Positions 4,741 to 25,005 are shown, counted from the stretch's first letter. The stretch: 64,000 bases of DNA from Candidatus Undinarchaeota archaeon (GCA_964519305.1 CAZFHY010000019.1:7351-71350); one strand, 5' to 3'. Numbers and translations are program-made. Notes: generated by a model not told the origin, from the sequence alone.

Positions 4741-6138
4741 TCACAGCGCGAACCGTTCTGTGACCACCTGAACGTCAGGTACACCGAGCTCGGCCAGCGT
4801 CGTCCTGAGCGCGTCCATCATTGGCGGTGGACCGCAGATGAAGTAGGTTGCGGTTGTAAGCTCCTCGACCTCGTCCTTAAGGACGGTGACGTCGACAAAG
4901 CCGTTGCGCATCCCCTCGACCTTCTCCTGGGATAGGATGTGGACCACGCGCAGCCAGTCGGAACCACGCTCGATGGCGGCCAGTTCCCCGAGGAAGGCGA
5001 TGTCGCCCTGGCTCCGGTTGGCGTAGAGCAGCAGAGTCCGCGGTTGTGTCCTCCCTTGCTCCTGCATGGCGCGTAGCATGCTCATCAGGGGCGTGATGCC
5101 GATACCACCGGCGATGAGAACGAACGGGCCGGGCATGTCCTTGTTGGAGAACACACCGTAGGGGCCTTCGACATGGGCCGTGTCCCGTCTCCCGACCTTG
5201 CCGAGAAGGCTGGTGAAGTCGCCCGACTCCTTGATCGAGAACGAGATGGCGTCAGCGCCCGGGGCAGAGGCGATGGTGAAGGGGTGCTCCTCCACAGGGA
5301 TGTCCTCGGACGTGAACGTGAGGAAGGCGAACTGTCCCGGTTCGTGGTCGAGGACGGCACTCTCCACCGGCCGGAGGGTGATAGTGTGGACGTCATGGGT
5401 CTCGAGCTTGTTGGTGACCACCTCATACTCACTGCCCGTAAACGTCATGCGCCGGACCACGTACCGGTACACTACCGCTCCAACGGACACCGCGGTCAAG
5501 AGCAGCCACCATGTGTAGAGTGGGCGTCCGTTCTTGATGTCTGAACCGAGGACGAGGCTATGGTAGAGCCCGATTGCGGCCAGGAGATAGGTGAGGAGAT
5601 GGACGATGCGCCAGCGCTCGTACAAGAGCCCCAGCTGCTTGCGCTTGAGCACGCTGATCCAGATGATGCCTATGACCACGGCACCGATAACACCGCCCAG
5701 GATGTCGGTGCCGTACATGGTGTAAGGGGCTGTGATATCCCCCTTCAGGAGCTCCCTGATGAAGAGGAGAAGGGGGTGGACGATGACGAACAGCGCGATG
5801 AGCTTGGCGTTCACAGAATGCCAGCGCATGATGCGGTCGAGACCGATGCCCCGTTCCAGAGAACGCCAGCGGGAGGCCAGCACGAGCTGGATGGCGATGG
5901 CGGTGAGGGCAAGTGTGCCCGCTGCCTGCCCGAGGCTGTAGACGGATGGAGGAGCGGGCTGGGGCAGCACGGTAATGACCACCCCCGCTATCATGAGGCA
6001 CACATAGAGCAGCTTGAGCGTGGCCGCCTTGTGATCGTCACGGAGCATGTATAGGTCGAGGACATGAAAGCTCATATATCTGAGCAGCGTGTCAGGGCCC
6101 ATGGAGCCTGTCGTACGCCCTTTCAGAGAAGAGGACAT
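4741..6138 (-). CDS. NOX/FRE-type ferric-reductase flavocytochrome (bis-heme 6-TM domain + FAD + NAD(P)H domains)
   Basis: Two His pairs in the TM helices with spacing 13 and 12 (H-SVNAKLIALFVIV-H; H-LLTYLLAAIGLY-H), typical of bis-heme NOX/FRE domains. FAD motif HPFTIAS. NAD(P)H motifs AGGIGITP and CGPPPM. The start may lie internal (M13 or M22), because the annotated start overlaps the divergent GNAT gene. Confidence 0.8.
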   Translation of the reverse strand: MSSSLKGRTTGSMGPDTLLRYMSFHVLDLYMLRDDHKAATLKLLYVCLMIAGVVITVLPQPAPPSVYSLGQAAGTLALTAIAIQLVLASRWRSLERGIGLDRIMRWHSVNAKLIALFVIVHPLLLFIRELLKGDITAPYTMYGTDILGGVIGAVVIGIIWISVLKRKQLGLLYERWRIVHLLTYLLAAIGLYHSLVLGSDIKNGRPLYTWWLLLTAVSVGAVVYRYVVRRMTFTGSEYEVVTNKLETHDVHTITLRPVESAVLDHEPGQFAFLTFTSEDIPVEEHPFTIASAPGADAISFSIKESGDFTSLLGKVGRRDTAHVEGPYGVFSNKDMPGPFVLIAGGIGITPLMSMLRAMQEQGRTQPRTLLLYANRSQGDIAFLGELAAIERGSDWLRVVHILSQEKVEGMRNGFVDVTVLKDEVEELTTATYFICGPPPMMDALRTTLAELGVPDVQVVTERFAL

Positions 6139-9412: not shown

Positions 9413-9673
9413 CTACTCCTCGCCGAACAAGTGCTTGAGCGGTCGGATGTAGAACACCAGCCCCAGGACGATGAACACCCACCAGTAGGGCATGATCTGG
9501 ATGTGGAAGTAGGCCCCAACCGGTAGCCCGAAGCAGAACGCCGCAGCCTTTATCAGCCGGACGTCGATGAAGTCCAGCTTTGTCACCTTGTAGTCCAGCC
9601 ACTCGTGCCATCCCATGTCCTTGGGGTTCTTCTTCGTGGGTTCGATCGTGTCCTTGATTTCTTCTTCAGCCAT
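9413..9673 (-). CDS. Small 2-TM membrane protein (paralog A of a tandem pair)
   Basis: 86 aa. Acidic N-terminus MAEEEIKD, a conserved DMGWHEWLD(Y/F)KVTKLD(F/Y)ID motif, two TM helices and a C-terminal YIRPLK. About 60% identical to its neighbour. Confidence 0.5.
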   Translation of the reverse strand: MAEEEIKDTIEPTKKNPKDMGWHEWLDYKVTKLDFIDVRLIKAAAFCFGLPVGAYFHIQIMPYWWVFIVLGLVFYIRPLKHLFGEE

Positions 9674-9684
9674 GATGTATCACC

Positions 9685-9939
9685 TTACCCGAACATGTCC
9701 TTGAGAGGCCGGATGTAGAACAGCACTGCCAGGACCACCAGTGGGATCCAGTAGGGCGTGATGTACGTGGGGAAGTGCGCCCCCACCACAAGCCCGAGGA
9801 GGAACACGGCCCACCCGATGAGCTTCATGTCGATATAGTCAAGCTTCGTCACCTTGAAGTCCAGCCACTCGTGCCAGCCCATGTCCTTGGGATCCTTCTT
9901 CGTGGATTCGATAATTTCCTTTGATTCTTCTTCTGCCAT
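9685..9939 (-). CDS. Small 2-TM membrane protein (paralog B of a tandem pair)
   Basis: 84 aa, the same architecture and motifs as 9413..9673. Confidence 0.5.
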   Translation of the reverse strand: MAEEESKEIIESTKKDPKDMGWHEWLDFKVTKLDYIDMKLIGWAVFLLGLVVGAHFPTYITPYWIPLVVLAVLFYIRPLKDMFG

Positions 9940-9959: not shown

Positions 9960-11147
9960 CTACTTTCTCAAGCTCTCCACGGGGTGGAGCTGGGCCGCCT
10001 GCCACGCGGGCATTACCCCCGACAGGCTGCCGGTGAGGAACGAGAAGCCAAGTGCTGTGCCGATGAGACCTGGTGTGATGTAGAGGTGGAGGATGAAGCC
10101 GGCGGCCCCGGCTCCCGCCTGGGCGAGGAGGGCGAACGAAAGCCCCACGGCCACCCCCAGAAGCCCCCCCACGAGTCCCAGAAGGCCCGACTCGATAAGG
10201 AAGATGGCGAGGATGTCGCCGTTGCGGGCGCCCACGGCCTTGAGTATACCGATCTCCCGCTGGCGCTCCATCACCGATGTGTACATGGTGTTCATGATGC
10301 CGATGCCCCCCACCACCAGGGCGATGGAGGCAACACCAACGAACAGCACCTGGATGGCGAGCATGATCCCTCCCATGAGGTCCATCATCTGGTTGGCGGT
10401 CTGGACCGAGAAGTCCGCCTGGCCCCGGAAGTCCTCCAGCTCCTCCTTGATGTCCTCGGCCACCTTGGCGGGATCGAGGCCGGGGCGGACAATGGCTATG
10501 ACATTGGACACCTCCTCGGGCTTGTCCATGAGCACCCGTGCCATGTCCTTGGTGATGTAGACCTGGGCGTCGTCCTGGGAGTTTCCCATGCTCTCGAGTA
10601 TCCCGACGACCTTGAAACGGTGGCCCTCCACAACAATGTTGGAGCGCAGGGGCACCGGTTTGTCGAAGAAGCCCTCGGCGATCCTGGAGCCTATGACTAT
10701 GTTGGAGCGGTCGGCGGGATTGAGCATCCGTCCCGCCGACACATCAAAGCCCATTCGGTGGAAGAAGAACTCTATGTCCTTTGCGTCGATACCGAGGAGG
10801 AAGGTGATGTACTTCTCCTGGCCGTGCTCGAGGTTGGCGGCGCCCGAGAGCATACCGAACGCCCGGTCCACGCCCCGGACCCGGTCCACCACCTTGATGT
10901 CGCGCTCGGTGAGCGCCCCCGCGGAGACACCGAAGCTTCCCATCCCCCCCTCACCTGTGAGGATCATCACCATGTCGGTCCCCATGCGCTCGAACTGCTC
11001 GTCCATGTAGCCCTCCAGCCCCTTGGTGATGGAGATAAGGCTCACGACTGCCGCCACGGCGATGAACACCCCCAGGACGGTCAGCCAGGAGCGAAGCCCC
11101 CGCCTAGTCAGGTTCCGTACCGCGATGATGAAGTATTCGCCAATCAT
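9960..11147 (-). CDS. ABC transporter permease, FtsX/MacB family (copy 3, most divergent)
   Basis: N-terminal TM helix, a large extracytoplasmic domain (MacB periplasmic-domain-like), and a C-terminal FtsX 3-TM bundle (GIMNTMYTSVMERQREIGILKAVGA). Confidence 0.85.
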   Translation of the reverse strand: MIGEYFIIAVRNLTRRGLRSWLTVLGVFIAVAAVVSLISITKGLEGYMDEQFERMGTDMVMILTGEGGMGSFGVSAGALTERDIKVVDRVRGVDRAFGMLSGAANLEHGQEKYITFLLGIDAKDIEFFFHRMGFDVSAGRMLNPADRSNIVIGSRIAEGFFDKPVPLRSNIVVEGHRFKVVGILESMGNSQDDAQVYITKDMARVLMDKPEEVSNVIAIVRPGLDPAKVAEDIKEELEDFRGQADFSVQTANQMMDLMGGIMLAIQVLFVGVASIALVVGGIGIMNTMYTSVMERQREIGILKAVGARNGDILAIFLIESGLLGLVGGLLGVAVGLSFALLAQAGAGAAGFILHLYITPGLIGTALGFSFLTGSLSGVMPAWQAAQLHPVESLRK

Positions 11148-11156
11148 GATTATCCC

Positions 11157-12356
11157 TCACTCGTATCTCAACGCCTCCACGGGATGGAGGTTCGCTGCTT
11201 GCATGGCCGGGAGCACCCCCGAGAGGCTCCCCACCAGGAAGGAGAACCCGATGGAGCCGATCCACAGGTGGATCCCCAGGTCCGGCTGCATGGCCGAGAT
11301 GCCCGCAGCCGTTGCCCCGATGCCCATGAGCAGACCCAGGCCCGCGCCCACCATGCATCCCAGGATGCCGCCCACGGTGCCCAGCATCCCCGACTCGATG
11401 AGGAAGATAGCAAGTATGTCGCCGTTGCGTGCGCCCACGGCCTTGAGTATGCCGATCTCCTGGGTGCGCTCCAGGACGGAGGTGTACATGGTGTTCATGA
11501 TACCGATGCCGCCCACCACCAGGGAGATGGCCGCCATCCCCACGATGAGGCCCTGCATGGCCAGCATGGCGCCGGCCACCATCTCTGCCATGCCGGCCAT
11601 GGTATTGACCGCAAAATCCTCCTTGCCCCGGTGGTCCTCCAGCTCCTCCTTGATCTTGTCGGCCACCTTCTGGGGGTCGAACCCCTTCTTGGGCCTCACG
11701 TAGATCATGGAGATCTCATCCCCCACCCCCAGGACCTCCTTGCCCTTGTCCCAGGGGACGAAGAAGTTGGAGTTGTCCTCCTTGTTCCCGAAGTCCTCCA
11801 TGACCCCCACCACGGTGAAGGTGTGGCCGCGGACGTCCACCTTGCTGCGCAGGCGGACGGGCTTGTCGAACTTGTCCAGGGTGTACTCCAGGCCCACGAC
11901 GGCCGCGTCGCGGTCCGACTTCAGAAGGTCCCTGCCCTGCTCCACCTGAAACCCGAACCCCTTCCCGATGATGCCGTCCATGAGATGGTTGGGGGTGACC
12001 ACGAAGTAGCCCCGTTCCTCCTGTCCACCATGCTCGAAGGTAACCACCGTGAATATGAAGGGCGCCGCGTAGTCCACCCCACGCACCCGCTCGATGACCT
12101 TTACGTCCTTTGAGGTCATGGGCTCGATGGCCAACCCGCCCGCGCCCATGGTGCCGCCCACGCCGGGCAGGACCATGATCAGGTCGTACCCGATCTTGGA
12201 GTAGGCCTCGTCCATGTAGTTCTGGAGCCCGGCGCCCATGGACACCAGGGATACGACCGCGGCGATGCCGATGAAGATGCCGAGCACGGTGAGGAACGAC
12301 CGGGTCCCGCGACTGCGCAGGTTCCTGAACGCGATGCGGAAGTAGTCTGCGATCAT
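11157..12356 (-). CDS. ABC transporter permease, FtsX/MacB family (copy 2)
   Basis: Same architecture as copy 3. Near-identical at the protein and DNA level to 12366..13565 (FRIAFRNLRSRGTRSFLTVLGIFIGIAAVVSL...). Confidence 0.85.
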   Translation of the reverse strand: MIADYFRIAFRNLRSRGTRSFLTVLGIFIGIAAVVSLVSMGAGLQNYMDEAYSKIGYDLIMVLPGVGGTMGAGGLAIEPMTSKDVKVIERVRGVDYAAPFIFTVVTFEHGGQEERGYFVVTPNHLMDGIIGKGFGFQVEQGRDLLKSDRDAAVVGLEYTLDKFDKPVRLRSKVDVRGHTFTVVGVMEDFGNKEDNSNFFVPWDKGKEVLGVGDEISMIYVRPKKGFDPQKVADKIKEELEDHRGKEDFAVNTMAGMAEMVAGAMLAMQGLIVGMAAISLVVGGIGIMNTMYTSVLERTQEIGILKAVGARNGDILAIFLIESGMLGTVGGILGCMVGAGLGLLMGIGATAAGISAMQPDLGIHLWIGSIGFSFLVGSLSGVLPAMQAANLHPVEALRYE

Positions 12357-12365
12357 GGTCTCACC

Positions 12366-13565
12366 TCACTCATAGCGCAGCGCCTCCACGGGATGGAGGT
12401 TCGCTGCTTGCATGGCCGGGAGCAGCCCCGACGCGCTCCCCACGATGAACGAGAACGAGATGGCGCCGATCCACAGGTGGATCCCCAGGTCGGGCTGCAT
12501 GGCCGAGATGCCCGCGGATCTGGCGCCGATGCCCATGAGCAGCCCCAGGCCAACGCCCACCATGCATCCCAGGATGCCGCCCACGGTGCCCAGAAGCCCC
12601 GATTCGATGAGAAAGATCATCATGATGTCGCCGTTGCGGGCGCCCACGGCCTTGAGTATGCCGATCTCCTGGGTTCGCTCCAGGACGGAGGTATACATGG
12701 TGTTCATGATGCCGATACCGCCCACCACCAGGGAGATGGCGGCCATGCCGATGATCAGGCCCTGGACGGCAAGCATGGCGCCCATGACCATGGCGCTCAT
12801 GGTGGCCAGCGTGTTGACCGCAAAATCCTCCTTACCCCGGTGGTCCTCCAGCTCCTCGCGGATGTCTGCGGCCACCTTGTCCACGTCGAACCCCTTCTTT
12901 GCGGTCGCGTAGATCATGGAGACCTCGTCCCCCACGCCCAGGACCTCCTTGCCCTTGTCCCAGGGGACGTAGATGGTGGAGTCCTTCTGCACGGCCCCGA
13001 TGGCCTCCAGAAGGCCCACGACCTTGAAGTCGTGACCGCGGACGGTGAGCTTGCTGTGCATGGTAACGGGCTTGTCGTACATGTCGCCCACGAACTCGGT
13101 CCCGATGATGACCACGTCCCGGTCACTGGTCCGCAAGGGGCGACCCTGGGTCACGTAGTACCCGAACATCTTGCCCACCACATCGTCCGTGATGTGGTTG
13201 GGGATGACGCCGATGAATCCCTTCCGCTCCTGGCCCGCATGCTCGATGGTCACCAGGGACATGATCATCGGCATGACCAGGTCCACGCCGCGCACCCGCT
13301 CGATGATCTTGACATCCTTGCTGGTGAACGGCTCGATGGACAACCCCCCGGCGCCCATGGTACCACCCACGCCGGGCAGGATCATGATCTTGTCGTACCC
13401 CACCTTCGAGTAGGCATCGTCCATGAAGTTCCGGAGCCCGGTGCCCATGGAGATCAGGGAGACCACGGCGGCGATACCGATGAAGATACCGAGCACTGTG
13501 AGGAACGACCGGGTCCCACGACTGCGCAGGTTCCGGAACGCTATTCGGAAGTACTCGGTGAACAC
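12366..13565 (-). CDS. ABC transporter permease, FtsX/MacB family (copy 1)
   Basis: Same architecture. Tandem paralog of 11157..12356. Confidence 0.85.
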   Translation of the reverse strand: MFTEYFRIAFRNLRSRGTRSFLTVLGIFIGIAAVVSLISMGTGLRNFMDDAYSKVGYDKIMILPGVGGTMGAGGLSIEPFTSKDVKIIERVRGVDLVMPMIMSLVTIEHAGQERKGFIGVIPNHITDDVVGKMFGYYVTQGRPLRTSDRDVVIIGTEFVGDMYDKPVTMHSKLTVRGHDFKVVGLLEAIGAVQKDSTIYVPWDKGKEVLGVGDEVSMIYATAKKGFDVDKVAADIREELEDHRGKEDFAVNTLATMSAMVMGAMLAVQGLIIGMAAISLVVGGIGIMNTMYTSVLERTQEIGILKAVGARNGDIMMIFLIESGLLGTVGGILGCMVGVGLGLLMGIGARSAGISAMQPDLGIHLWIGAISFSFIVGSASGLLPAMQAANLHPVEALRYE

Positions 13566-13610
13566 GGTATCACTTCCCTACCATGGTCCTGTGCCCTCCC
13601 GGGCAGGGGC

Positions 13611-15587
13611 TCACTTGGAGCCCCTGCGCCAGAAGAAGCGGTACGCGCCGTACAGGCCACCCACGAACACCAAAAGGCCCACTACCAGACCGACGACCAT
13701 GCCGGTCCCCATGGTGAACTCGAGCCCAAGGCGCTGGATGTCCTCCGGACCATAGATGGTCAGCTCGATATCCTCCTTCAGGGTGTAGCTCTTCCTGCTC
13801 GAATCCTGGTACTCCACGGTGACCGGGAGCGCAAGCTTCCCGGGCGCAGCATCAGCCTTGACCTTGAGCTCGAACTCCGCCGTCTCGAAGTCGTCGGAGT
13901 CCATCTTGCCCACGTAGATCCGGTCCGAGGACAGGACCTCCAGGACGTCGGTGGGGGCCACATTGACCGTCAGGAACTTGATGTTCTCAGTGCCCTTGTT
14001 CACGAAGTTCAGGGTCACGGTCCCCTTCTGGCCAGCCTTGTACAGCGGCGACTTCTCCAGGCCGATCTGGATGCGCGGCACCTCGCCGGTGAGCTCACCC
14101 ACGGGGTCGCCCGCCTTGTAGAGGCGCAGGGGCACGTGCTTCTCTTCCGTGTACTGGTGGTTCTGGGTGTCGCTGAACCTCAGCTGGAGCTTGAGGTCGG
14201 ATGTTGCTCCGGCGAACTCCTCGGGCACATGGATCGAGTAGGTGATTGTGTTCTTCGCATTGGCAGCCAGGCTCTCGATGAACGTCGTGGGCGAGGAGAG
14301 GATCTTCACGCCCGCTGGTACCAGGAGCTGGGCCACCAAGGACCGTGCCTCTTCGGCGCCGGTGTTGAGCACCTCGATGGACACGTCCTGGGTTGTTCCC
14401 TTCTTGAAAAGGTCGGGGGAGGATACCCGCAGGTCGAGCCCGGGCTTGGAGCCCACCACTACGGTGACGATCCCCATCCTGGTGAAGCGCTTGCCCAGGC
14501 TGTCCAGGTAGGCGATGCCCACGGGAATCTTGTAGATGCCCGGTGCGGCTGTCCCGGCAGCGGTGATGTCGAACTGCACGGTGCCCTCGGCACCGGGCGC
14601 GAGGCTGTCGAGCACGCGCTCCGCCGACGACTGGCTCGTGGCGAAGGGGATGGTGGTCGCCGACAGGTCGAGGCCCACGGTGATGCTGCGCAGGGGCACG
14701 TCCGAGGCGCTCTTCAGGGTGAGATAGACAGTGGCGTCCCCGCCCGGAGGGATGCGAACCGGGTCGGTGGTTGTCCCTGCAACGAGCAGGTCGCGTCCGA
14801 CCGCCTTCCGCACGTTCAATGCGAGCTCGAGGTTCTTTGTGGTCGTAGCGCCTTTGCTCTTGTAGGTGAGGGTTATCGGGAGGATATAGATGCCGTCCGC
14901 ACCATCACCGATCCCCAGGGAGAGGCGCACCTTCTTTGTGGACCGGGGGCCCATGTCCCCGAGCCATCGGTTCGTCCCTGCGTTAAGGAGATAGAAGAGG
15001 CTGGTGTCCGTGGAGCCTTTGGGCGTGGTGCTGATGTCCAGTTGCACGTCCTGGGCCTTCCCGAGACCGGTATTTTCAAGGGTAAGGGCCGCTGTGGCGG
15101 TCCCACCCGGAGCGAGTTGCTCGGGTGTGAGGGCGATCTCCTTGAGCGTGAAGTCCGCACCAGACTCCACGTCGATGCTCACCTTATGGATGGTCACTTC
15201 CTCGCCCTCGGTGCACGTGTCGGGGCACGCGGCGATCTCGAGCTCGTAGGTGTCCTCCGGTGCGTCCTCGGCCACGATGACCAGGAACTTGCGGTACACC
15301 TCTGTCTTGGGCGCGAGACTACCGATATGGAACGATTCGCTCTCACCCGGTTTCATTGTGAACGGGTACTTAGGCCGCACCTCGAGCACAAGGTTATCTG
15401 CCGTGTTCTGAGCGTAGTTGTCCACCTTGATGCTCACCTCCACCTGTCGTCCGGGCTCGGCGGGCACAGGTTCATAGCTCAATCCGAGAACGCGGATGTT
15501 CGGATCCGTCGGGAGGAAGTCGGCCCCGGCCGAAAGGGCTAGAATCAGGGCGCACACGATACCGGCTGCGATCTTTTTGTCAGTCAT
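13611..15587 (-). CDS. Secreted multi-domain CARDB/COG1361-like protein with a C-terminal TM anchor (ABC-associated)
   Basis: Signal peptide, then about 5 beta-sandwich CARDB-like domains, then a C-terminal TM helix (MVVGLVVGLLVFVGGLYGAYRFFWRRG). ATGA overlap with the ATPase gene. Confidence 0.7.
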   Translation of the reverse strand: MTDKKIAAGIVCALILALSAGADFLPTDPNIRVLGLSYEPVPAEPGRQVEVSIKVDNYAQNTADNLVLEVRPKYPFTMKPGESESFHIGSLAPKTEVYRKFLVIVAEDAPEDTYELEIAACPDTCTEGEEVTIHKVSIDVESGADFTLKEIALTPEQLAPGGTATAALTLENTGLGKAQDVQLDISTTPKGSTDTSLFYLLNAGTNRWLGDMGPRSTKKVRLSLGIGDGADGIYILPITLTYKSKGATTTKNLELALNVRKAVGRDLLVAGTTTDPVRIPPGGDATVYLTLKSASDVPLRSITVGLDLSATTIPFATSQSSAERVLDSLAPGAEGTVQFDITAAGTAAPGIYKIPVGIAYLDSLGKRFTRMGIVTVVVGSKPGLDLRVSSPDLFKKGTTQDVSIEVLNTGAEEARSLVAQLLVPAGVKILSSPTTFIESLAANAKNTITYSIHVPEEFAGATSDLKLQLRFSDTQNHQYTEEKHVPLRLYKAGDPVGELTGEVPRIQIGLEKSPLYKAGQKGTVTLNFVNKGTENIKFLTVNVAPTDVLEVLSSDRIYVGKMDSDDFETAEFELKVKADAAPGKLALPVTVEYQDSSRKSYTLKEDIELTIYGPEDIQRLGLEFTMGTGMVVGLVVGLLVFVGGLYGAYRFFWRRGSK

Positions 15588-16384
15588 GATTTCTCACCTT
15601 TCTTCGTATCTGTTTTCCTTTTCTTCTTCTTTTTCTCCTCTTTTTCTGCTATCACGTCATGGTCCTCATTGTATTTCAGACGGTCGACGATAGCGCCGTC
15701 CAGGAGATAGACGATCCGCTTCGCGTATTTCGCGAGGTGGTCGTCGTGGGTCACCATGATGATGGTCTTGCCCTCCTTGTGGAGCTTGGCGAGCATGTTC
15801 ATGATGTCCCGTCCCATCTTTGAGTCCACGTTCCCGGTGGGCTCATCAGCGAGTATGATATCTGGATCGTTGCACAGCGCACGGGCGATGGCCACGCGCT
15901 GCTGCTGGCCTCCTGACAGCTCCGATGGCAGATGGTCTACGCGGTTACCCAGTTCCATCTTCTCTAACAGTTCGGAGGCCCGCTCGAATCGTTCGTCCGA
16001 GCTGTATCCCTGGAACACCATGGGCAGCATGACGTTCTCCAGGGCGGTGAGCCCCGGGATGAGATTGAACTGCTGGAATATGAACCCGATCTTCTGCCCG
16101 CGGATCTGGGCGAGGTCGCTCTCGTCCAGCTCGGCGATGTCCTGTCCTTCCAGGAGGATGGTGCCGTCAGTGGGCACGTCAAGGCAACCCACCATGTTCA
16201 TGGCGGTGCTCTTTCCCGAACCCGAGGGCCCCATGATGGCCACGAACTCTCCCTGGTGGATGACTATGTCGATCCCGCGAAGGGCATGGACGGCAGCGTC
16301 GCCCTCACCGTAGACCTTCGTGACCCCTTTGAGGACAAGGAGTGTTGTCCCCTGGTCTCTGTTGGTTTTCTCGTCCTTGGCCAT
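15584..16384 (-). CDS. ABC transporter ATP-binding protein (MacB/LolD-type)
   Basis: Walker A GPSGSGKST, signature LSGGQQQRVAIARAL, Walker B ILADEPTGNVD, H-loop MVTHD. Unusual Lys-rich C-terminal tail (EKEEKKKKKRKTDTKKGEKS). Start set at MAKDEK, which has a GGTGA SD; an upstream ATG at 16405 is also possible. Confidence 0.9.
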   Translation of the reverse strand: MAKDEKTNRDQGTTLLVLKGVTKVYGEGDAAVHALRGIDIVIHQGEFVAIMGPSGSGKSTAMNMVGCLDVPTDGTILLEGQDIAELDESDLAQIRGQKIGFIFQQFNLIPGLTALENVMLPMVFQGYSSDERFERASELLEKMELGNRVDHLPSELSGGQQQRVAIARALCNDPDIILADEPTGNVDSKMGRDIMNMLAKLHKEGKTIIMVTHDDHLAKYAKRIVYLLDGAIVDRLKYNEDHDVIAEKEEKKKKKRKTDTKKGEKS

Positions 16385-16405
16385 GGTCTCACCTTCTTCG
16401 TTCAC

Positions 16406-16981
16406 TTATCTCCTCAGGGCCACGTAGCTCGTTTCCCTAGGGATGCCGTGCTTCTTCTCAAGGAGCTCGAAGACGTCATCGAAGATCTCGAGGGTTTTTG
16501 AATACTCCTGCTCGAGCTTGCGCAGTGCGGAGATCCGGTACTCCAGGTCGGCCAGCTCCTCGGGCGAGGCCTTCAGATTCTTCGCGTTCTCCTTCAGCAC
16601 TTCGAATTCATTGGCGGCCTTGCTCACCGTGGCCCTGAGTGCGACGCACATGACAGGTAACCTCGTCAGGAAGATGAGCATGGCCTTTCCCAGCTCGAGG
16701 GTCATCACCGAGAAGTACAGCTTCTTGCTCCCGGGTCGGGTTTCCTGGTGGACCTTGTTGAGCCCCACGAGAATCTTGAGGTTGGTGGAGAGGGAAGAGA
16801 GGCTGTAGCCCGTGCGCTCTGCAAGCTCCTGCATGGTGAGGGGTTCGGGGGAGAAGATAAGGGTGAACATGATCCTGGCAAAGATAGGGGACATTCCCAT
16901 GGGGGCCATCATCGGCGTGACTACTGCCAAGATCCCCTCCTCGATGCCCTTGATCTCCGATACGAGCGTTTTCCCTGCCAT
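16406..16981 (-). CDS. GbsR/COG1510-like winged-helix transcriptional regulator (paralog 1)
   Basis: N-terminal wHTH with an ...ELAERTGYSLSSLSTNLK...ETRPGSKKLYF motif. Abuts the ABC ATPase gene. Confidence 0.6.
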   Translation of the reverse strand: MAGKTLVSEIKGIEEGILAVVTPMMAPMGMSPIFARIMFTLIFSPEPLTMQELAERTGYSLSSLSTNLKILVGLNKVHQETRPGSKKLYFSVMTLELGKAMLIFLTRLPVMCVALRATVSKAANEFEVLKENAKNLKASPEELADLEYRISALRKLEQEYSKTLEIFDDVFELLEKKHGIPRETSYVALRR

Positions 16982-17096
16982 GACATTCCCTGGATCTTCG
17001 GATTATTTATTATTTACTGTATTTTTAGTACATTCCGAATTTAAATAATTTTAGTATATATCGAAAATACCGAATATCGCTCATTGGACACCATCA
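16982..17096. promoter_or_regulatory. AT-rich intergenic promoter region with TATA-like boxes and direct repeats
   Basis: TTTAAATAA at 17040-17048 and TATATA at 17055-17060. TTTTAGTA at 17023-17030 and 17050-17057. T(T/A)CCGAAT at 17033-17040 and 17068-17075. Confidence 0.4.
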
Positions 17097-17660
17097 TCAC
17101 GTCTCCTGCTCCGTTTCCAGCTTGAGGATGAACCTTCCCAGGAGGCCCATGAGGCGCTCCATGAGCTGATAGTCGTTCTCTAATCCCCTGACCAGGTTCA
17201 TTCGTTCCTCAAGGGCCCGACCTGTCTTGGCGGAAGCGTTAGCGTCATTGGCCATCTGGGCCGCGGCCTCGTACTCCTGCCTGATGCGGGGGAGGTGCTC
17301 GAGCATGACCTTCACCTCCCGTTCGTATCCTATCTTGAGCATGCTCATGAGGACCTCGTGGAGCTGCTTGGACCGGATAGATACGTACACCTTCTTGCTA
17401 CCCGGCCTCGTCTCGCGCCGGGCGACGCCCATCCCGTCCATGATGCGTACGTTCCTGCTGAGTGTCGGGAGGCTGTACTTCGTTCGTTCTGAGAGCTCCT
17501 GCATGGATAGTGGGCCTTCGGCAAGGAATAGCTCGGCCATGATCCTGCCGGGAGCAGCGGGGAGACCGAAGCTCATGGTGACGTCGATGAAGAGCTTCAC
17601 GAACTCCTCGTCAGCGGCACGGATATGGGTATCGATATCGGATTCTGCTGGCTCGACCAT
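17097..17660 (-). CDS. GbsR/COG1510-like winged-helix transcriptional regulator (paralog 2)
   Basis: Shares the ELSERTKYSLPTLSRNV...RETRPGSKKVYV motif with 16406..16981, followed by a C-terminal coiled-coil. Confidence 0.6.
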   Translation of the reverse strand: MVEPAESDIDTHIRAADEEFVKLFIDVTMSFGLPAAPGRIMAELFLAEGPLSMQELSERTKYSLPTLSRNVRIMDGMGVARRETRPGSKKVYVSIRSKQLHEVLMSMLKIGYEREVKVMLEHLPRIRQEYEAAAQMANDANASAKTGRALEERMNLVRGLENDYQLMERLMGLLGRFILKLETEQET

Positions 17661-17850
17661 ATTGGGTTACTTATAGGCGCCCTTACTATTTATATATTTC
17701 TTAAATATGAAAAATAAGACCTAGAAGAAATGGTATGTGATTCATCTCACTTTTGTTACAAAAAAAAATCGATAGATAGCGGCCTCGTCTGGCTGGTTTC
17801 GTAAGGTTTTTAAGCGCCACAGGATAATATAACTATCGAGTGGTAACTAG
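17661..17850. promoter_or_regulatory. AT-rich divergent promoter region
   Basis: About 190 bp at ~30% GC between divergent genes. Contains TATTTATATAT and TTAAATAT TATA-like elements and an A9 run. Confidence 0.35.
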
Positions 17851-20800
17851 GTGTTGCCACGGCAGGTGTTCATCGTGATAGGGCGAACCTCGTGGACAGT
17901 GCTATTCGCACTGACTATGCTAATGCTCCTCGTCGTGGGGAACGGAGAGGGCACAGGGTCCGGTACGGGGCAATCCCAGAACACTGCGGACAATGCAGTG
18001 GACTTCTCGCAGTTCTTCAGCGAGAGCGAACAGGAGATGCTCGAGACCAACGAGGAACTGGAGGCAGTAAGGGCCAACCTCTTGCTCGCCATTTCGGAGT
18101 GTTCTGCCAAGGAGGAGGAACGTCTCCAGGCGTGGCAGACGCTAGAGCAGAAGCGCGTGATCATGGAGCAGCGTCAGGAGGTCCTCGGTCAGCGGACGGA
18201 AGTGCGTGTCGAGAAGGAGACGGTGCGCGACGACAAGCAGACTGACTTAGATGGGAAACAGGCAGCGCTCAATGCATGTGAGGACTGCTCTTGTGGTGAG
18301 GGCGAGACCGATTGCAGCTGTGATTGTAGCAGTGAGCGGAGCGCACGTGATAATGCCCAGACGGAGCTCAACACGGCACAGACCGAGCTCGACGATGCCA
18401 TCGATCTTGAGACCACCGCCCAGGATAACTTCGACACTGCCGATACCGAGCACACGACGGCCGAGACCGAGTTCACCGCGTCTGCTGAGTGTGCCGACGG
18501 AGCCTGCCTTGTTCAGGGCGACCTCGAAGGTGTTGACCTCCGCCAGGGTGGATGCAGCGAGGGTCCTTGTGTGTCCTTCTCCACCGATGACGCAACGATC
18601 ACCAGTAGCGTCGAATCGCAAGTGGGGGAGGATCCGGAGATTATCGAGACAACGACGGATGCCGAGTTGGAGGTGGCCTTCACCGACATGGAGGTGGCCT
18701 TCACCGATATGGACGCCCCGGAAGCGATGACCACCGACTTCGACGCAGCAGCAGGCGACTTCCTGATAGACGGTGCGAACCGACTTGAAGACCTAATAAT
18801 CTACTCGGAGACCATGGCAGAGGCCTATAACGAACTGGGGATCGCCATGGGGGAGGACAACGAGGAGCTCACGGCCTATCTCGAGGGAAAGGACCCCCTG
18901 GGCCTCACTCCCGCCGAGCTCGAGGACCTGTTCACGTTCGTGATGGATACGAAGGACGAGCTCCCTGTCGACGACAACCACTTCTTCGACGCCATGCGCT
19001 ATCTCTCTAGCGAGGAGGGCGAGCTCTTCCTCGCTGACGTAGAGGAAAAATCACTGGCCGGCACGATCAGCGGTCTGAACATGGACAAGGAAACGCTCGA
19101 GAGCGTCATCGACGATCTTCAGGAGGAGAAGGAGTTCTATCAAATGCTCCTGTTCTGGGCCATGGAACCGGAGGACATCGCCTGGGTTCTGGAGGAGATC
19201 GCGCTAATAGAGGGGTTCCAGGACGCTCTCAGGAGTGAGGTCACCCGGATCGACTCGGAGATGGTGGAGCTCAACGAACAGCGCGAGAAGGCAGAGGCGG
19301 ATAGGACGGCCATCAAGGAGAGCCTCGAAGCGGCCGAGGCGAAGGCAGCAACCGCTAGGAACGCCCTCAACAAGTGTAATACGGACGGGTGTGACGAGAA
19401 CACGGTGGCCGCACTACAACTGGACCTACAGCAGGCCGAAGAGGAAAGGAACCTCTTGCAGACCCAGCTCGAGGAGACGAACACGTTGCTCGAGGAGCTG
19501 GACGCTAAAGGTGGCGCGCTCGAGGAGGAGAAAGAGAGCCTCGAGACCACCGTGAACACATTCGACGACATCATCGAGGGCGAGGATGTGGACCCCGATG
19601 CGCTCACCACTCTGGTGGACATCACAAAGAACAAGGCGACGGAGACTGTCGATACGATCGATGAACAGATCGATCTGAAGAAGGACGAGCAGGGTCAGAT
19701 CACCATCACGATCGACCAGAGCCAGAACGATCTGGAGGACAAGCAGGCCCAGACCGAGAAGGAGCGGCAGGAGCTCGCGCAGCGGCAGCTCGAAGAGGCT
19801 CAGAAGAGGGAGCAGGAGCTTAAGCAGACAAAGACCGAGCTCTCAACGGGCCTCACAGCAGCAGAGGAAAAGCTTGCTTATATCGAGGAACAGCTCAAGG
19901 CAGCGACCGAGGAGGGGGACAAGAAGACTCTGGAGGACCTCAAGCAACAGGTCATCAAGGAACGCGAGGAGCTGGAAAGCCAGCTCGGGGAGATAGCCGA
20001 CCAGATCGATCAGGCGCGGGGCCGTCGTCATGAGCTCGAGGACAAGTACGGGGTAGGCAATCCCGAACAGCGGGCCGCTGAGAGCCATATCGACGAGGTG
20101 AAGGTCCAAGAAAATCAGCTCGAAAAGAATCACGAGCGGCTCACCACCGACATCAAGGAGAAGGAGCAGGTGCTCGCGACCATCGAGGAGCAGCTCAAGG
20201 GGGCCTCCACTGACGAGGAACGGAAGCAGCTCGAGGAGCAGAAGGCGATCGTGCTCAATGAGCGCGACCAGCTGTCCACCCAGCTCGAGGACGTAAAACA
20301 GGAACTCGAACAGGCCGCAACGCAGCGTCAGGAGCTCGAGAAGAAGTACGAGGAGCAGTACGGAGCAGCTCCGCCGGAGGCCGAGCCCAAGACCGCTGAT
20401 AAAACGGAGGAGAAGCCCGGGACGGTGGAGGAGGCGACCGGTGCTTTCGAGTCGGTCATCGAGAACATCGAGCAGGCCGGCGTGGGGATCGAGGGCGAGG
20501 AAGCCGTGACCGAGGCCCCTCCCAACGCCAATCCGAACGTCGAGTTCCTCAACGCTGTTACGGAGACTCTGGAACGGGTGGGCCAGTCAGCGGCCAATGA
20601 AGAACGTGACGAGGATGAACCGGAGGGACCTCCGGAATCCAAGCCGCCGAAGAAGGAGAAAAAGAAGTCGGAACCCGTGATAATCCCTCCGCCAGTAGCC
20701 TCCTACGTGGACCCATTCCCCGCGCAGTACAGCCCTATCGGGACCATGTCCGTCATCGAGGAGCCGCTCGTTGCCGTAGCGGCCGCACAGCCCCCGTCAC

Positions 20801-21534
20801 CGCCCTCTACCTCGGCGCCCGTGACCCCTGCAGGCCCGGTCCAACCGTCGCAGCCCGGAGAGGTCGTGACGGCACCGCGCCAGCTCGATCCAGTGGATGC
20901 GGCCGACCTCGCGGCCGTGTTCGTGGACGGGGAACAGCTCGAAACGCCGGACGGCGCCACTATTCTCGTGGACTCGACGACCAACGAGGTGTACAAGGTG
21001 ACCCAGGAGGGAGTGGAGACCACGGGGACCGACCAGCTCCACATCCAGGAACGGGTGGACCCGCTCACCGGCGATACCGAGTACTATGCTGTCGTGGGCA
21101 ACGTCACCGATGAGAACTCCACCCTTGATGATATCGCAGAAGGGAACGCGACCGACATAGCCGAGGAGGCCATCATCGAGATCCGCTACCTGGACGATGC
21201 CAAGAACGTCCTGTTCATAGGTCCGCGATGCCAGATGACCAACCTCACGGACGTAGATGTGCGTGTGGTGACCCTCAACGATACTGTCATCAATGCAACC
21301 AAGAACGAGACCAATGCAACCGTGATGCTGCTGGACATCTCGTGCGTCCCCGCAGTGACCATGGACGAGGACGATCCTGAGGCGAATGTCGTCACCTTCC
21401 TTGAGGAGATGGAGTGCTTCGGTGCCGAAGTGGGGCGATGCCTGGACATCGAACTGTACATGGTGGTCATAGGTAAGGACGAGAACCTCTGGGAGGTCCA
21501 GTGCATCGAGAAGCTCTATTCAGGGATCGAATGA
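17851..21534 (+). CDS. Giant secreted/anchored coiled-coil protein (1227 aa) with a C-terminal N-glycosylation-sequon-rich globular domain
   Basis: GTG start. N-terminal hydrophobic signal/anchor. About 800 aa of acidic heptad-rich alpha-helical sequence with internal ~77-aa repeats (IEEQLK...ELE.KY..). A CxC cluster (CEDCSCGEGETDCSCDCSS). A Pro-rich linker. The C-terminal domain carries 8 N-x-S/T sequons within 80 aa. Confidence 0.7.
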   Translation: MLPRQVFIVIGRTSWTVLFALTMLMLLVVGNGEGTGSGTGQSQNTADNAVDFSQFFSESEQEMLETNEELEAVRANLLLAISECSAKEEERLQAWQTLEQKRVIMEQRQEVLGQRTEVRVEKETVRDDKQTDLDGKQAALNACEDCSCGEGETDCSCDCSSERSARDNAQTELNTAQTELDDAIDLETTAQDNFDTADTEHTTAETEFTASAECADGACLVQGDLEGVDLRQGGCSEGPCVSFSTDDATITSSVESQVGEDPEIIETTTDAELEVAFTDMEVAFTDMDAPEAMTTDFDAAAGDFLIDGANRLEDLIIYSETMAEAYNELGIAMGEDNEELTAYLEGKDPLGLTPAELEDLFTFVMDTKDELPVDDNHFFDAMRYLSSEEGELFLADVEEKSLAGTISGLNMDKETLESVIDDLQEEKEFYQMLLFWAMEPEDIAWVLEEIALIEGFQDALRSEVTRIDSEMVELNEQREKAEADRTAIKESLEAAEAKAATARNALNKCNTDGCDENTVAALQLDLQQAEEERNLLQTQLEETNTLLEELDAKGGALEEEKESLETTVNTFDDIIEGEDVDPDALTTLVDITKNKATETVDTIDEQIDLKKDEQGQITITIDQSQNDLEDKQAQTEKERQELAQRQLEEAQKREQELKQTKTELSTGLTAAEEKLAYIEEQLKAATEEGDKKTLEDLKQQVIKEREELESQLGEIADQIDQARGRRHELEDKYGVGNPEQRAAESHIDEVKVQENQLEKNHERLTTDIKEKEQVLATIEEQLKGASTDEERKQLEEQKAIVLNERDQLSTQLEDVKQELEQAATQRQELEKKYEEQYGAAPPEAEPKTADKTEEKPGTVEEATGAFESVIENIEQAGVGIEGEEAVTEAPPNANPNVEFLNAVTETLERVGQSAANEERDEDEPEGPPESKPPKKEKKKSEPVIIPPPVASYVDPFPAQYSPIGTMSVIEEPLVAVAAAQPPSPPSTSAPVTPAGPVQPSQPGEVVTAPRQLDPVDAADLAAVFVDGEQLETPDGATILVDSTTNEVYKVTQEGVETTGTDQLHIQERVDPLTGDTEYYAVVGNVTDENSTLDDIAEGNATDIAEEAIIEIRYLDDAKNVLFIGPRCQMTNLTDVDVRVVTLNDTVINATKNETNATVMLLDISCVPAVTMDEDDPEANVVTFLEEMECFGAEVGRCLDIELYMVVIGKDENLWEVQCIEKLYSGIE

Positions 21535-23178: not shown

Positions 23179-23272
23179 GGGGACATAGTGTAGCTAGGCA
23201 GCACGGTGGGCTCCAGAATCCATTCACGGCTGTGGAAACCCGCAAACTAGGGTTCAAATCCCTATGTCCCCA
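23179..23272 (+). tRNA. tRNA-Trp (anticodon CCA) with a 21-nt intron at the canonical 37/38 position
   Basis: Manual fold. 7-bp acceptor stem GGGGACA/TGTCCCC with discriminator A. D-arm GTGT/GCAC. Anticodon stem GTGGG/CCCGC. Loop CU-CCA-G, an intron of roughly 23217..23237, then A. T-arm TAGGG-TTCAAAT-CCCTA. No encoded CCA. Confidence 0.8.
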
Positions 23273-23331
23273 CTCCTTTATCCTTCCCTGTCCGAACACT
23301 TTTTAACGCTTCAGGCTTTCGTCCAGCGCCC

Positions 23332-24543: not shown

Positions 24544-24582
24544 TTTCTGTTCACCTTCGCATATGGGATTTTGGTCACTACC

Positions 24583-24969
24583 TCAGATCGTCGTCATCCA
24601 CAGGCCGTGGACGGTGCAGTGCTCACGCACCGCGATGATCTTCTCGCCGGTGCAGTCGCAGAACAGGGCCTCAGGTGCCTGTCCTGGCTTCAGGAACACG
24701 ATATGTGTAGCTATATCAGTGACGAGCTCGATCCACTCGATGAAGTGGTTCTCCTCCATGGGATGGGTCACCGAGCCCACGATCACCTTCAGACCGCCGT
24801 CGGTCGTCTCGATGACGGGGAGGTGCTTCTCCATGCCTTGGTCCTCTTTCTTCTCCTCGAGTAGAATCATCTTGCGGGCGCAGCACACGAGCTCTCCCCC
24901 GCTGGCGTGTACGACCTCGATGATGTTACCGCACACGTCGCATTTGTAGACTTCCAGCCTCTTGGTCAT
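24583..24969 (-). CDS. dfx: Desulfoferrodoxin (2Fe superoxide reductase)
   Basis: N-terminal desulforedoxin centre CDVC...CC. SOR domain with four His and Cys-x2-His ligands (EKHLPV, THPME, NHFIEW, EHCTVHG). Confidence 0.85.
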   Translation of the reverse strand: MTKRLEVYKCDVCGNIIEVVHASGGELVCCARKMILLEEKKEDQGMEKHLPVIETTDGGLKVIVGSVTHPMEENHFIEWIELVTDIATHIVFLKPGQAPEALFCDCTGEKIIAVREHCTVHGLWMTTI

Positions 24970-25005
24970 TTCATATCAACCTCTTGCACACTTTTCTAGG
25001 CCCGT

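Follow-up and report, generated by a model that had tools for sequence, protein, structure and literature searches.

The minus-strand transporter operon described here, from an uncultured marine archaeon, is best explained as a lineage-specific expansion of a conserved archaeal ABC module of type VII (MacB fold), a reading to which we assign a probability of about 55%. It lies within a window of 64,000 nt, the whole stretch of DNA analysed, and belongs to a marine clade that carries the NCBI submitters' label Undinarchaeales. Judged from the sequence, its likeliest function is that of a ligand-induced type VII exporter, which would serve in export or detoxification. The parts listed in an earlier, sequence-only reading were all recovered, i.e. 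a type VII/MacB-type ABC system with a single ATPase, a multi-CARDB partner and a pair of GbsR-like regulators, the assignment of the last being weak.

Gene content and regulation of the locus

The features of the locus are given in Table 1. Full-length ORFs with both MacB_PCD and FtsX domains occupy all three permease positions in tandem, as previously described, and there is only one ABC ATPase in the operon. Beyond permease 1, the operon extends into two small paralogous genes for 2-TM proteins. Every internal gene of the operon is preceded by an SD-like site, and leaderless-type AT-rich promoters precede reg2 and reg1. The gene spacing (gaps of -4 to 45 nt) suggests that the operon is co-transcribed.

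Table 1. Features of the transporter locus (positions counted from the first nucleotide of the window)
Feature	Position	Strand	Description
reg2	17097..17660	-	187-aa GbsR/MarR-like winged-helix regulator
Promoter/operator-like region between reg2 and reg1	16982..17096	none	Conserved, AT-rich, 115 bp
reg1	16406..16981	-	191-aa wHTH regulator, paralog of reg2; first in transporter operon
ABC ATPase	15584..16384	-	LolD/MacB/MJ0796 type, 266 aa, Lys-rich C-terminal tail
Envelope partner	13611..15587	-	658 aa, CARDB/NEW3 Ig-like domains
Permease paralog 3	12366..13565	-	399 aa, GTG start; MacB-type 4-TM, Porter+Sabre; MacB_PCD + FtsX
Permease paralog 2	11157..12356	-	399 aa; MacB_PCD + FtsX
Permease paralog 1	9960..11147	-	395 aa; MacB_PCD + FtsX
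Small 2-TM protein	9685..9939	-	84 aa, 20 nt downstream of permease 1
Second small 2-TM protein	9413..9673	-	86 aa, 65% identical to 84-aa paralog

All three permeases score well above the Pfam gathering thresholds for MacB_PCD (PF12704; 102-107 bits, cut-off 27) and FtsX (PF02687; 65-73 bits, cut-off 25.5). Permease 2 aligns over its full length with MacB in the PDB (E=1.5e-36), and its AF2 model (pLDDT 82.5) has a TM-score of 0.77 to A. baumannii MacB (5GKO), the modelled periplasmic domain reaching 0.81 to both the MacB domain 3FTJ and the YknZ ECD. Hydropathy, the AF2 model and the MacB alignment agree on four TM helices (19-55, 253-296, 311-350 and 362-379 in the model), the first two of which are separated by a large extracytoplasmic domain (alpha/beta, 60-252). 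Together with an NBD of the LolD/MacB/FtsE subfamily, these are the features of a type VII ABC system.

The ATPase matches ABC_tran (E=6e-35), has intact Walker A (GPSGSGKS), signature (LSGGQQQR), Walker B (ILADEPT) and H-loop (VTHD) motifs, and finds its best PDB matches in 5XU1_A (1e-77), MJ0796 (2e-74) and the MacB NBD. Translation most likely begins at ATG 16384, giving the 266-aa protein; a GGTGA ribosome-binding site, kept in three species, lies 5 nt upstream. The alternative start, GTG 16405, is disfavoured by this site and by database gene calls. The unusual poly-Lys tail reported earlier is present as a Lys-rich C-terminus, which is conserved in the sister species L086 and L090 and, being absent in distant homologs, is clade-specific.

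The envelope partner fits its earlier description as a secreted multi-CARDB protein of 658 aa, with an N-terminal signal-like segment, NEW3/CARDB matches (NPCBM_assoc 64.3 bits, cut-off 24.4; CARDB 43.2 bits, cut-off 22.7) and, at the C-terminus, a TM helix and then a basic tail. The AF2 model (pLDDT 79) has five beta-sandwich domains, so that the order is signal peptide, five Ig-like domains, juxtamembrane helix, TM helix and basic tail. Across the partner family a common plan is kept, with a signal peptide at the start, Ig domains in the middle, and a TM helix and basic tail at the end. Domains D2 and D3, and likewise D4 and D5, are internal duplications, and D5 is the most conserved domain across the family. 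Foldseek searches with the partner returned only generic Ig/MG arrays and no MFP fold, and an MFP domain was found in none of the operon proteins.

The gene for the 84-aa protein, which has two predicted TM segments, is preceded by an SD-like GGAGA and is probably co-transcribed with permease 1; its product may be an accessory subunit. Few proteins belong to this family, which has 9 representatives in a set of 1.84 billion. L086, L090 and L096 all carry it, with a copy number that differs by species (2 here, 3 in L086), and it is absent from all modules examined outside this clade.

The two wHTH regulators are paralogs (33% identical) and flank, as had been noted, a 115-bp AT-rich spacer containing short repeats. 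Their GbsR/MarR-type assignment is weak. On MarR_2 (cut-off 27), reg1 scores 27.7 bits and reg2 24.1 bits, the latter being under the cut-off, and on CudC (NF047500, cut-off 218) the scores are 25 and 35 bits, respectively. The Pfam HTH matches of reg2 also lie near or under their cut-offs. The best PDB match of reg2 is MJ223 (1KU9), at a weak E=2.5e-4, and that of reg1 reaches only E=0.43. A gap of 21 nt separates reg1 from the ATPase, and reg1 orthologs are 70-73% identical (dN/dS 0.26-0.35). There are orthologs of reg2 in L086 and L090, and four loci (L006, L013, L094 and L095) have a homolog upstream of the ATPase. With an AT-rich promoter to itself and no SD, reg2 is probably monocistronic.

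Within the spacer, an ATTCgGAAT palindrome (17032-17040) has weaker copies about 35 bp on either side, and a TATA-like AAATAATAAATAA precedes the reg1 ATG by about 22-35 nt. Taken one by one, the short repeats do not exceed chance expectation, with ATTCGGAAT occurring 10 times in the window at one mismatch or fewer (10.5 expected), and the spacer motif shows no window-wide enrichment. The 95-bp spacer core that contains the repeats is 80-91% identical in three species, in which a 33-nt block is invariant at 32 of its 33 positions. It is this conservation, rather than the short repeats, that provides real evidence for a candidate regulatory site.

The archaeal module and its expansion in one clade

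The operon belongs to a module conserved in archaea, mostly in DPANN-like genomes, and composed of a wHTH regulator, a LolD/MacB-type ATPase, a single-pass multi-Ig partner and one or more MacB-fold permeases. Partner and ATPase genes are adjacent in 43 complete modules, and partner homologs hold the same gene position in 41 other modules. Regulator homologs occur in 9 of the 43, two from this clade included. At many DPANN loci the search for a regulator found none, and housekeeping genes surround the module (ribosomal and RNA polymerase genes in L092, for example); this context would suit a constitutive role in the envelope no less than inducible efflux.

Complete modules have one permease (20 of 43) or two (21 of 43), and three or four are found in this clade only. 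The sequence-only reading was therefore right to regard three tandem permeases as unusual (0 of 80 genome loci, and 0 of 41 complete partner-containing modules outside the clade). It had named as a ground for refutation the finding that related genomes routinely carry the triple arrangement with a known function. This holds in part: close relatives do carry it, and one has four permeases, but no function is known. Gene order in L086/L087 is the same as in the window, and the four permeases of L090 are seen again in a second, independent sample (L096). Duplication in this clade has affected the regulators (2), the Ig domains of the partner (5 vs 3), the permeases (3-4) and the small 2-TM proteins (2-3), the ATPase being the sole part not duplicated.

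Permeases 2 and 3 had been described as near-identical even in their DNA and as recently duplicated, neither of which holds. They are 75.4% identical in protein (301/399) and about 83% in DNA (986/1182 aligned), with a longest exact DNA run of 44 nt. Permease 1, the earliest-branching copy, is 52-53% identical to both. Because each copy has a 1:1 ortholog in two other species (89-96% aa identity, dN/dS 0.07-0.21), the permease duplication is old, and that of permeases 2 and 3 precedes the split of at least three species. Orthologs are 93-96% identical for permease 1 (dN/dS 0.11-0.16), 89-93% for permease 2 and 94-96% for permease 3 (dN/dS 0.07-0.13), and the paralogs keep 86-91 of 98 family-conserved positions. 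These data indicate that all permease copies are functional and under purifying selection.

In NJ trees, which are distance-based and leave deep nodes without resolution, the window-clade permeases form a monophyletic group (100% bootstrap), which has a single-permease module as its sister (94%). The paralogs of this clade are accordingly placed as having arisen independently, from a single-permease ancestor. Where a module has two permeases, these are paralogs of long standing, the first and the second each having followed its own line of evolution.

The paralogs differ from one another mostly in the Sabre subdomain and hardly at all in TM1/TM2 or the coupling helix. Identity between permeases 2 and 3 is 53% in Sabre vs 85-90% in the TM and coupling regions, and dN is 0.40-0.43 vs 0.05-0.10. 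This pattern is consistent with the earlier suggestion of combinatorial heterodimers with different extracytoplasmic domains; homodimers of each paralog would match the data equally well, and the conserved TM interface would permit any pairing.

Proposed mechanism and competing explanations

In the proposed exporter, an ATPase dimer would drive a permease dimer by mechanotransmission, as in MacB, and substrates would not cross the bilayer but be expelled from the membrane's outer face or from the pseudo-periplasm. The Ig-domain partner may substitute for the bacterial MacA-type adaptor, a role assigned by analogy only, since it bears no similarity to MFP adaptors; contact with the permease would be made by its TM helix and by its membrane-proximal domain, the most conserved one. 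Alternative permease homo- or heterodimers would share one ATPase, to which all three paralogs could dock because their TM helices and coupling helix are near-identical. As the Sabre subdomains have diverged, such alternative dimers would give different extracytoplasmic specificities. Expression would probably be ligand-controlled by both wHTH proteins, acting via the palindrome-bearing region near the reg1 TATA box.

An unlikely, though by no means negligible, alternative is that nothing is transported and that the system is an FtsEX-like mechanotransducer, ATP-driven movements of the permease periplasmic domains being conveyed to the Ig-domain partner itself or, by way of it, to the S-layer or cell surface. 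The outcome would be envelope remodelling, or control of host-cell attachment in a DPANN-type symbiont, with each permease paralog coupled to surface targets of its own. FtsEX itself is a precedent for a non-transporting member of the family (PMC5985334), and the partner is as conserved as the permease, is membrane-anchored beside it and has, in its exposed middle domains, the kind of mosaic pattern that surface proteins typically show. There is no evident substrate gene, and the housekeeping surroundings of DPANN modules, together with the lack of a detected regulator at most loci, are also in its favour. However, the permeases have the full Sabre subdomain that is missing in FtsX (PMC5985334) and reach only 31-43 bits on NCBIfam FtsX models (cut-offs 225-255), the partner has no coiled-coil or hydrolase-activator features, and the MarR/GbsR-type regulators of the clade suggest a response to a ligand.

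It is rather improbable that the system is a Lol-like extractor, in which heterodimeric permeases would pull lipid-anchored proteins or lipids from the outer leaflet and pass them to the Ig-domain partner. MacB is a far better match than LolC/E, on whose models the permeases score 27-77 bits (cut-offs 362-540), no LolA-like carrier is present in the locus, and the window clade derives from a single-permease form. In a DPANN archaeon auxotrophic for lipids, such an extractor could handle the trafficking of membrane lipids or lipoproteins, with extra paralogs widening the cargo range, and several observations recall it: the old, separately evolving paralogs of two-permease modules resemble LolC/LolE, LolCDE chains are among the structural matches, and the ATPase scores 236 bits on the NCBIfam LolD model. 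In addition, permease 3 has lost the family-conserved N191 and D194, and permease 1 retains the GNxxDD family motif, which hints at asymmetric roles.

More doubtful still is a peptide/bacteriocin export-and-immunity locus, modelled on the YknWXYZ and AS-48EFGH systems, in which the 2-TM proteins would either confer immunity or be exported themselves, and the producer would be shielded by the MacB-type pump. The genes for the small membrane proteins come immediately after those of the pump and change in number along with the permease genes, and the ATPase also matches bacteriocin-export ABC models; yet the small proteins have two TM helices without a leader or cleavage motif, are confined to this clade among the modules examined, and have no biosynthetic or modification genes nearby. 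Small membrane proteins, YknW included, do modulate MacB-like pumps (PMC5985334).

Assembly artefact, a worry raised at the outset as assemblers can create or collapse tandem paralogs, and decaying duplicates have virtually no chance of explaining the locus and are regarded as refuted, because copies only 75% and about 52% identical cannot be mis-collapsed repeats, one and the same gene order was assembled independently in 24 or more metagenome contigs, drawn from ENA, JGI and Logan, and is seen in two further species, and every ORF is intact with dN/dS of 0.21 or less.

Relation to known transporter classes

The best match in both sequence and structure is MacB of MacAB-TolC (E. coli, A. actinomycetemcomitans, A. 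baumannii; 5NIK, 5LIL, 5GKO), which shares with the window permeases the 4-TM fold, Porter and Sabre subdomains and coupling helix, and has an NBD of the same subfamily. Unlike MacB, the NBD is here a separate polypeptide, the host is archaeal, and three or four permease paralogs replace one homodimeric protein. There is neither a MacA-type MFP adaptor nor TolC, and an Ig-repeat single-pass protein stands in the adaptor's gene position. A tripartite pump of the MacAB-TolC type was rejected on NF007826 scores (124-138 bits for the permeases and 263 for the ATPase, cut-off 966), the lack of an MFP and the unfused NBD.

The MacAB-like pumps of Gram-positive bacteria (S. pneumoniae Spr0693-0695, 5XU1; B. 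subtilis/B. amyloliquefaciens YknWXYZ) are similar in having a separate ATPase and permease in a single-membrane cell, and they provide the top ATPase match (5XU1_A) and the YknZ ECD match given above; Spr0694 stands with MJ0796 and MacB among the nearest relatives of the ATPase. They have an HlyD/MFP adaptor and one permease gene, whereas the partner here is built of five beta-sandwiches. The Ykn system also includes an extra small membrane protein, YknW (PMC5985334).

In LolCDE, as here, paralogous permeases share one ATPase, and it offers a precedent for heterodimers in which the periplasmic domains differ in function, but it has two paralogs rather than three or four, and its LolA partner is missing here. 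Identity with LolCDE was rejected (TIGR02212 57-77 bits vs 362; LolC and LolE models 27-55 bits vs 439-540), as was identity with FtsEX, on the Sabre subdomain and model scores given above.

With the other archaeal modules (L006-L013, L049, L091-L095, L097-L175) the locus shares gene order, partner family and topology, the permease family (38-47% identical) and, in part of the loci, the regulator family. In those modules the partner measures 269-466 aa and is accompanied by one or two permeases. In this clade it reaches 658 aa, the permeases number three or four, two regulators and small 2-TM proteins are present, and the ATPase bears N- and C-terminal extensions. The M. jannaschii ATPase MJ0796 is a member of the NBD group of these modules, and its gene neighbours are presumably a CARDB-like protein and an FtsX permease. 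The locus thus appears to be not a new kind of system but a widespread, unstudied archaeal pump that has been elaborated in one lineage.

Gene order, neighbourhood and regulatory sequences

In this locus a widespread, uncharacterised archaeal MacB-type module has undergone a lineage-specific expansion of several components; in the module, a LolD/MacB-type ATPase, sometimes with a regulator, accompanies a multi-Ig partner protein and one or more MacB-fold permeases. In Pfam, each permease matches MacB_PCD and FtsX well over threshold, the ATPase matches ABC_tran, the partner matches NPCBM_assoc (NEW3) and CARDB, and the two regulators (reg1 and reg2) give weak MarR-type wHTH matches. The nearest NCBIfam models of the ATPase and permeases are MacB and LolD, with scores far under all equivalog cut-offs. 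Pus10, ZPR1 and GatAB mark the window as archaeal, and cluster members are labelled 'Candidatus Undinarchaeales archaeon' (DPANN) or 'Methanopyri archaeon', which are NCBI submitter names only.

Positions of the cluster genes and of neighbouring features in the window
Feature	Position	Strand	Length
reg2	17097-17660	minus	187 aa
AT-rich spacer reg2/reg1	16982-17096		115 bp
reg1	16406-16981	minus	191 aa
ABC ATPase	15584-16384	minus	266 aa
Partner protein	13611-15587	minus	658 aa
Permease 3	12366-13565	minus	399 aa
Permease 2	11157-12356	minus	399 aa
Permease 1	9960-11147	minus	395 aa
Small gene 1	9685-9939	minus	84 aa
Small gene 2	9413-9673	minus	86 aa
Conserved non-coding block	17740-17850
Large acidic protein	17851-21534	plus	1205-1227 aa
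tRNA	23179-23273	plus	95 nt (ARAGORN)
CWB2 ORF	34749-40613	minus	1954 aa
ORF and ABC-2-family protein	48318-51310	plus	609 aa, 390 aa
DUF11 ORF	60757-62826	plus	689 aa
Flavoprotein-to-aminotransferase genes	4741-6138; 23968-26658	minus (first interval)

Intergenic gaps in the cluster range from -4 to 45 nt, and a GGTGA-like Shine-Dalgarno (SD) site precedes every internal gene. Upstream of reg2 and of reg1 there is AT-rich, TATA-like sequence and no SD site, as is usual for a leaderless first gene in archaea. Because of this spacing and these signals, reg2 would form a separate unit, and reg1 through to the second small gene a single operon. A scan of the window for sigma-70 promoters and intrinsic terminators is uninformative for an archaeon. 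The ATPase, previously given a GTG start, most likely begins at ATG 16384, as the upstream GGTGAGACC is conserved in three species and database gene calls concur. Its Lys-rich C-terminal tail is conserved within the clade formed by the window species and two sister species carrying the cluster, and is absent from homologues elsewhere. The two small proteins, 65% identical, each have two TM helices after an acidic/Lys N-terminus and belong to a very rare family (motif KLDxxDxKLI...IRP) with 9 representatives among 1.84 billion proteins. An 882-aa repetitive match to the 84-aa protein, obtained in an exhaustive search, was low-complexity noise.

The best solved relative of reg2 is MJ223 (1KU9, E=2.5e-4), which serves as the GbsR archetype, and the match of reg1 is weaker. 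The GbsR-like label attached to both regulators in the sequence-only reading is reasonable but not established. The direct repeats it saw in the reg2/reg1 spacer are present, but as short words they are within chance (10 counted vs 10.5 expected window-wide). The telling feature is conservation: the three species are 80-91% identical over a 95-bp core of the spacer, whereas the flanking regulator genes have a synonymous dS of 0.4-1.5. Within it the block ATTCGGAATGTWCTAAAAATACAGTAAATAATA, invariant at 32/33 positions, includes an ATTC-G-GAAT palindrome, closely followed by a TATA-like element that lies 22-35 nt ahead of the reg1 start, and a weaker copy of the palindrome lies between that element and the start. 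This is a plausible repressor/operator layout, through which reg1 would be autoregulated, and ATTCGGAAT is a candidate regulator-binding element of the reg2/reg1 promoter region. A strongly conserved non-coding block between reg2 and the large divergent gene (CTAGTTACCACTCGATAGTTATATTATCC...GCTTAAAAACCTTACGAAACC) is also common to the three species; it had no match in Rfam, and may encode a small RNA or serve the large gene as promoter or leader.

The large gene, which adjoins the operon in all three species, encodes a highly acidic, Glu/Lys-rich and possibly coiled-coil protein with no Pfam match. Further away, an ORF with only an N-terminal CWB2 cell-wall-binding match and another with a C-terminal DUF11 Ig-like domain may specify further large surface proteins; many ORFs in this part of the genome match no family. 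A 609-aa ORF lacking a Pfam match overlaps the start of an ABC-2-family membrane protein; the pair is a second transporter candidate, unrelated to the MacB-type operon. Gene tables of matching contigs list a ferric-reductase/NOX-like flavoprotein, desulfoferrodoxin, rubrerythrin, NifU and a class-V aminotransferase, which by annotation would be a set of oxidative-stress and Fe-S genes of the kind that anaerobes or microaerophiles typically have. The sole tRNA of the window received an odd four-base anticodon call from ARAGORN and a full Rfam match over 94 nt to the 71-position tRNA model, and possibly contains an intron.

Age and divergence of the permease copies

Permeases 2 and 3 had been taken as near-identical in DNA and recently duplicated, with a concern about assembly. 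The near-identity is wrong, and the sequence-only reading as a whole is confirmed in part as an observation and supported in part as an interpretation. The two permeases share 83% of aligned bases and 75.4% of residues (longest exact DNA run, 44 nt), while permease 1 is 52-53% identical to either; divergence of this size cannot come from expansion or collapse during assembly. At least 24 contigs in ENA, JGI and Logan assemblies encode exactly this partner protein, with identical gene order on all. Oxygen-deficient marine samples, such as the sources of L001-L005, contain the organism. In one sister species (loci L086/L087; partner 82% identical) the order reg2-reg1-ATPase-partner-three permeases is kept, with three small genes. 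In the other (L090; partner 88% identical) a fourth permease, confirmed by the independent sample L096, is located after the small genes, which vary from two to three between sister species.

Neighbour-joining unites the ten permeases of the three species in a single clade (bootstrap 100%), divided into permease 1 plus the fourth copy of L090 on one side and permeases 2 and 3 on the other, and each paralogue has 1:1 orthologues that are 89-96% identical. In a larger tree (neighbour-joining, 75 sequences), the sister group of this clade is the single-permease module of a hydrothermal-vent archaeon (support 94%). The duplications are therefore lineage-specific and predate the split of the three species. 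Between orthologues, dN/dS is 0.07-0.21 in the permeases, 0.11-0.20 in the ATPase and 0.15-0.27 in the partner. Of 98 positions with at least 90% conservation among 42 distant homologues, the three paralogues keep 86-91; judged by these values, all permease copies are maintained genes. Gene conversion between permeases 2 and 3 was suspected from a TM-region paralogue dS (0.31-0.51) near that of orthologues (0.20-0.36), but a recent event is ruled out because paralogue pairs within a genome are no closer than pairs between genomes.

To transfer subdomain limits, permease 2 was aligned to A. actinomycetemcomitans MacB, in which the extracytoplasmic Porter subdomain comprises 306-346 and 466-503 and the Sabre subdomain 347-465 (PMC5985334); this places Sabre at residues about 80-195 of permease 2. 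Permeases 2 and 3 are 53% identical in Sabre compared with 82-90% in TM1, Porter-N, TM2 and the coupling helix through TM4, and dN between them rises from 0.05-0.10 in the TM and C-terminal part to 0.40-0.43 across residues 91-200. Between orthologues the Sabre region is well conserved (dN 0.02-0.09). Since the coupling-helix segment YTSV(L/M)ER(T/Q)(Q/R)EIGILKAVGARNGDI is nearly invariant across the three permeases and Sabre has diverged, all three could plausibly engage the single ATPase and form pairs among themselves, yet present different outward surfaces. Permease 3 lacks N191 and D194 of the family-wide GNxxDD motif, both retained in permease 1, which hints at asymmetric roles. Modelled with AF2 (pLDDT 82.5), permease 2 has a TM-score of 0.77 to A. 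baumannii MacB, and its periplasmic domain scores 0.81 to the MacB and YknZ domains.

The partner protein and related archaeal modules

The partner has a signal-peptide-like N-terminus and a C-terminal TM helix followed by a basic tail. Its AF2 model (pLDDT 79) contains five beta-sandwiches (D1-D5: 31-140, 146-259, 267-378, 384-490 and 506-612), then a short juxtamembrane helix and the TM helix. Foldseek searches with this model returned only generic Ig/MG-domain arrays at low TM-scores, with no MFP-adaptor-like match and no functional lead. Homologues at the same gene position have three domains in common, relative to which the partner of the window clade carries two insertions of ~115 aa each. 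The insertions are internal duplications, as seen from the likeness of D2 to D3 (z 10.6) and of D4 to D5 (z 13.2). The membrane-proximal D5 is the most conserved domain family-wide, with an invariant Y-x-G...DD motif, and is where we would expect contact with the permeases.

The middle Ig domains, D3-D4 (residues 263-493), are mosaic. Between the window gene and that of L086 (10001-11977), their dN is about 0.28 and dS about 1.0, two to three times the values in D1, D2 and D5 (dS 0.3-0.5), and here the window and L090 remain close. Positive selection was rejected because dS is raised along with dN in L086, which suggests that this surface-exposed segment recombined with a divergent allele.

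The partner family evolves too fast for word-index searches, which recovered 4 proteins from the single sequence and 7 from a 10-sequence profile. Profile HMMs applied to genome and metagenome loci found 43 complete modules with a partner homologue. One permease is present in 20 of them (median partner length 300 aa) and two in 21 (median 423 aa); three or more occur only in this clade, in L086 (three) and L090 (four), each with a 658-aa partner. Three tandem permeases were found in 0/80 loci (one genome per species), and two in 11/80. A regulator like reg1/reg2 was detected in 9/43 modules, including both from this clade. Among the matches listed, the nearest permeases outside the clade are 38-47% identical, and the labelled relatives are mostly DPANN (Nanohaloarchaea, Woese-, Pace- and Nanoarchaeota), with some Methanosarcinales and Thorarchaeota. 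The first and second genes of two-permease modules are old paralogues in separate clades (neighbour-joining, 75 sequences), reminiscent of LolC/LolE.

Across the 41 outside modules, which come from among loci L006-L013, L049, L091-L095 and L097-L175, plus L086 and L090, partner length tracks permease number, and all partners under 320 aa (n=12) are paired with a single permease. This trend may be a lineage effect, because the loci are phylogenetically non-independent and one clade of 11 has most of the short partners.

No description of this module was found in the literature on archaeal CARDB/FtsX/MacB-type systems, and in its general form it is known from annotation only. The neighbours of the ATPase MJ0796 in M. 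jannaschii presumably form such a module. In reviews, type VII ABC systems are treated as bacterial, both where MJ0796 is the sole archaeal mention (PMC8277102) and where archaea are not mentioned (PMC5985334). The TFB-RF1/PF1011-1012 system is unrelated, being an ABC-2 transporter (PMC5937170).

Mode of action and comparison with known systems

The best-supported reading, at a probability of about 0.55 overall, is a MacB-type mechanotransmission exporter in which one ATPase would serve alternative permease dimers and the Ig-repeat partner would, by analogy, take an adaptor-like role. The architecture is far more certain than this, and export or detoxification less so. A doubtful alternative is an FtsEX-like transducer acting on the partner or the surface, which would suit the housekeeping gene context in DPANN genomes but not the full Sabre subdomain or the presence of regulators. 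The old paralogue pairs of other modules would fit a Lol-like extractor of lipid-anchored cargo, made improbable by model scores against it and by the absence of a carrier protein. That the locus serves peptide export or immunity through the small 2-TM proteins is very improbable: these are co-encoded, but leader motif and biosynthetic genes are lacking. An assembly artefact or decaying duplicates, with nothing in favour except the initial concern, is excluded for practical purposes by low copy identity, the at least 24 contigs, L086/L087 synteny and low dN/dS.

There is a slim chance that the partner is a scaffold whose domain number scales with the permease species served (about 290 aa for one, about 420 aa for two, 658 aa for three or four), several distinct MacB-type dimers sharing an ATPase pool and the elongated partner. 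If so, this would be an archaeal adaptor-free way to move different cargos across a DPANN-type pseudo-periplasm, and these might be lipids or surface proteins that are exchanged with a host.

The purpose of Sabre was left open by a review of MacB (PMC5985334). The three or four paralogues, with the same motor interface and differing Sabre, are a natural experiment that isolates this subdomain as the variable element; if they differ in substrates or partners, they would give direct evidence of what it does. Purifying selection on three or four permeases in a small-genome marine archaeon suggests importance for the envelope or for interactions, and the locus should interest those studying type VII ABC transporters and DPANN envelopes. 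To our knowledge, type VII ABC transporter studies have been almost all bacterial. On present evidence the locus is a gene-family expansion within a known transporter class with no new mechanism, and nothing in it contradicts current understanding; it points to a widespread archaeal form of these systems, with an Ig-repeat single-pass protein in place of the MFP adaptor.
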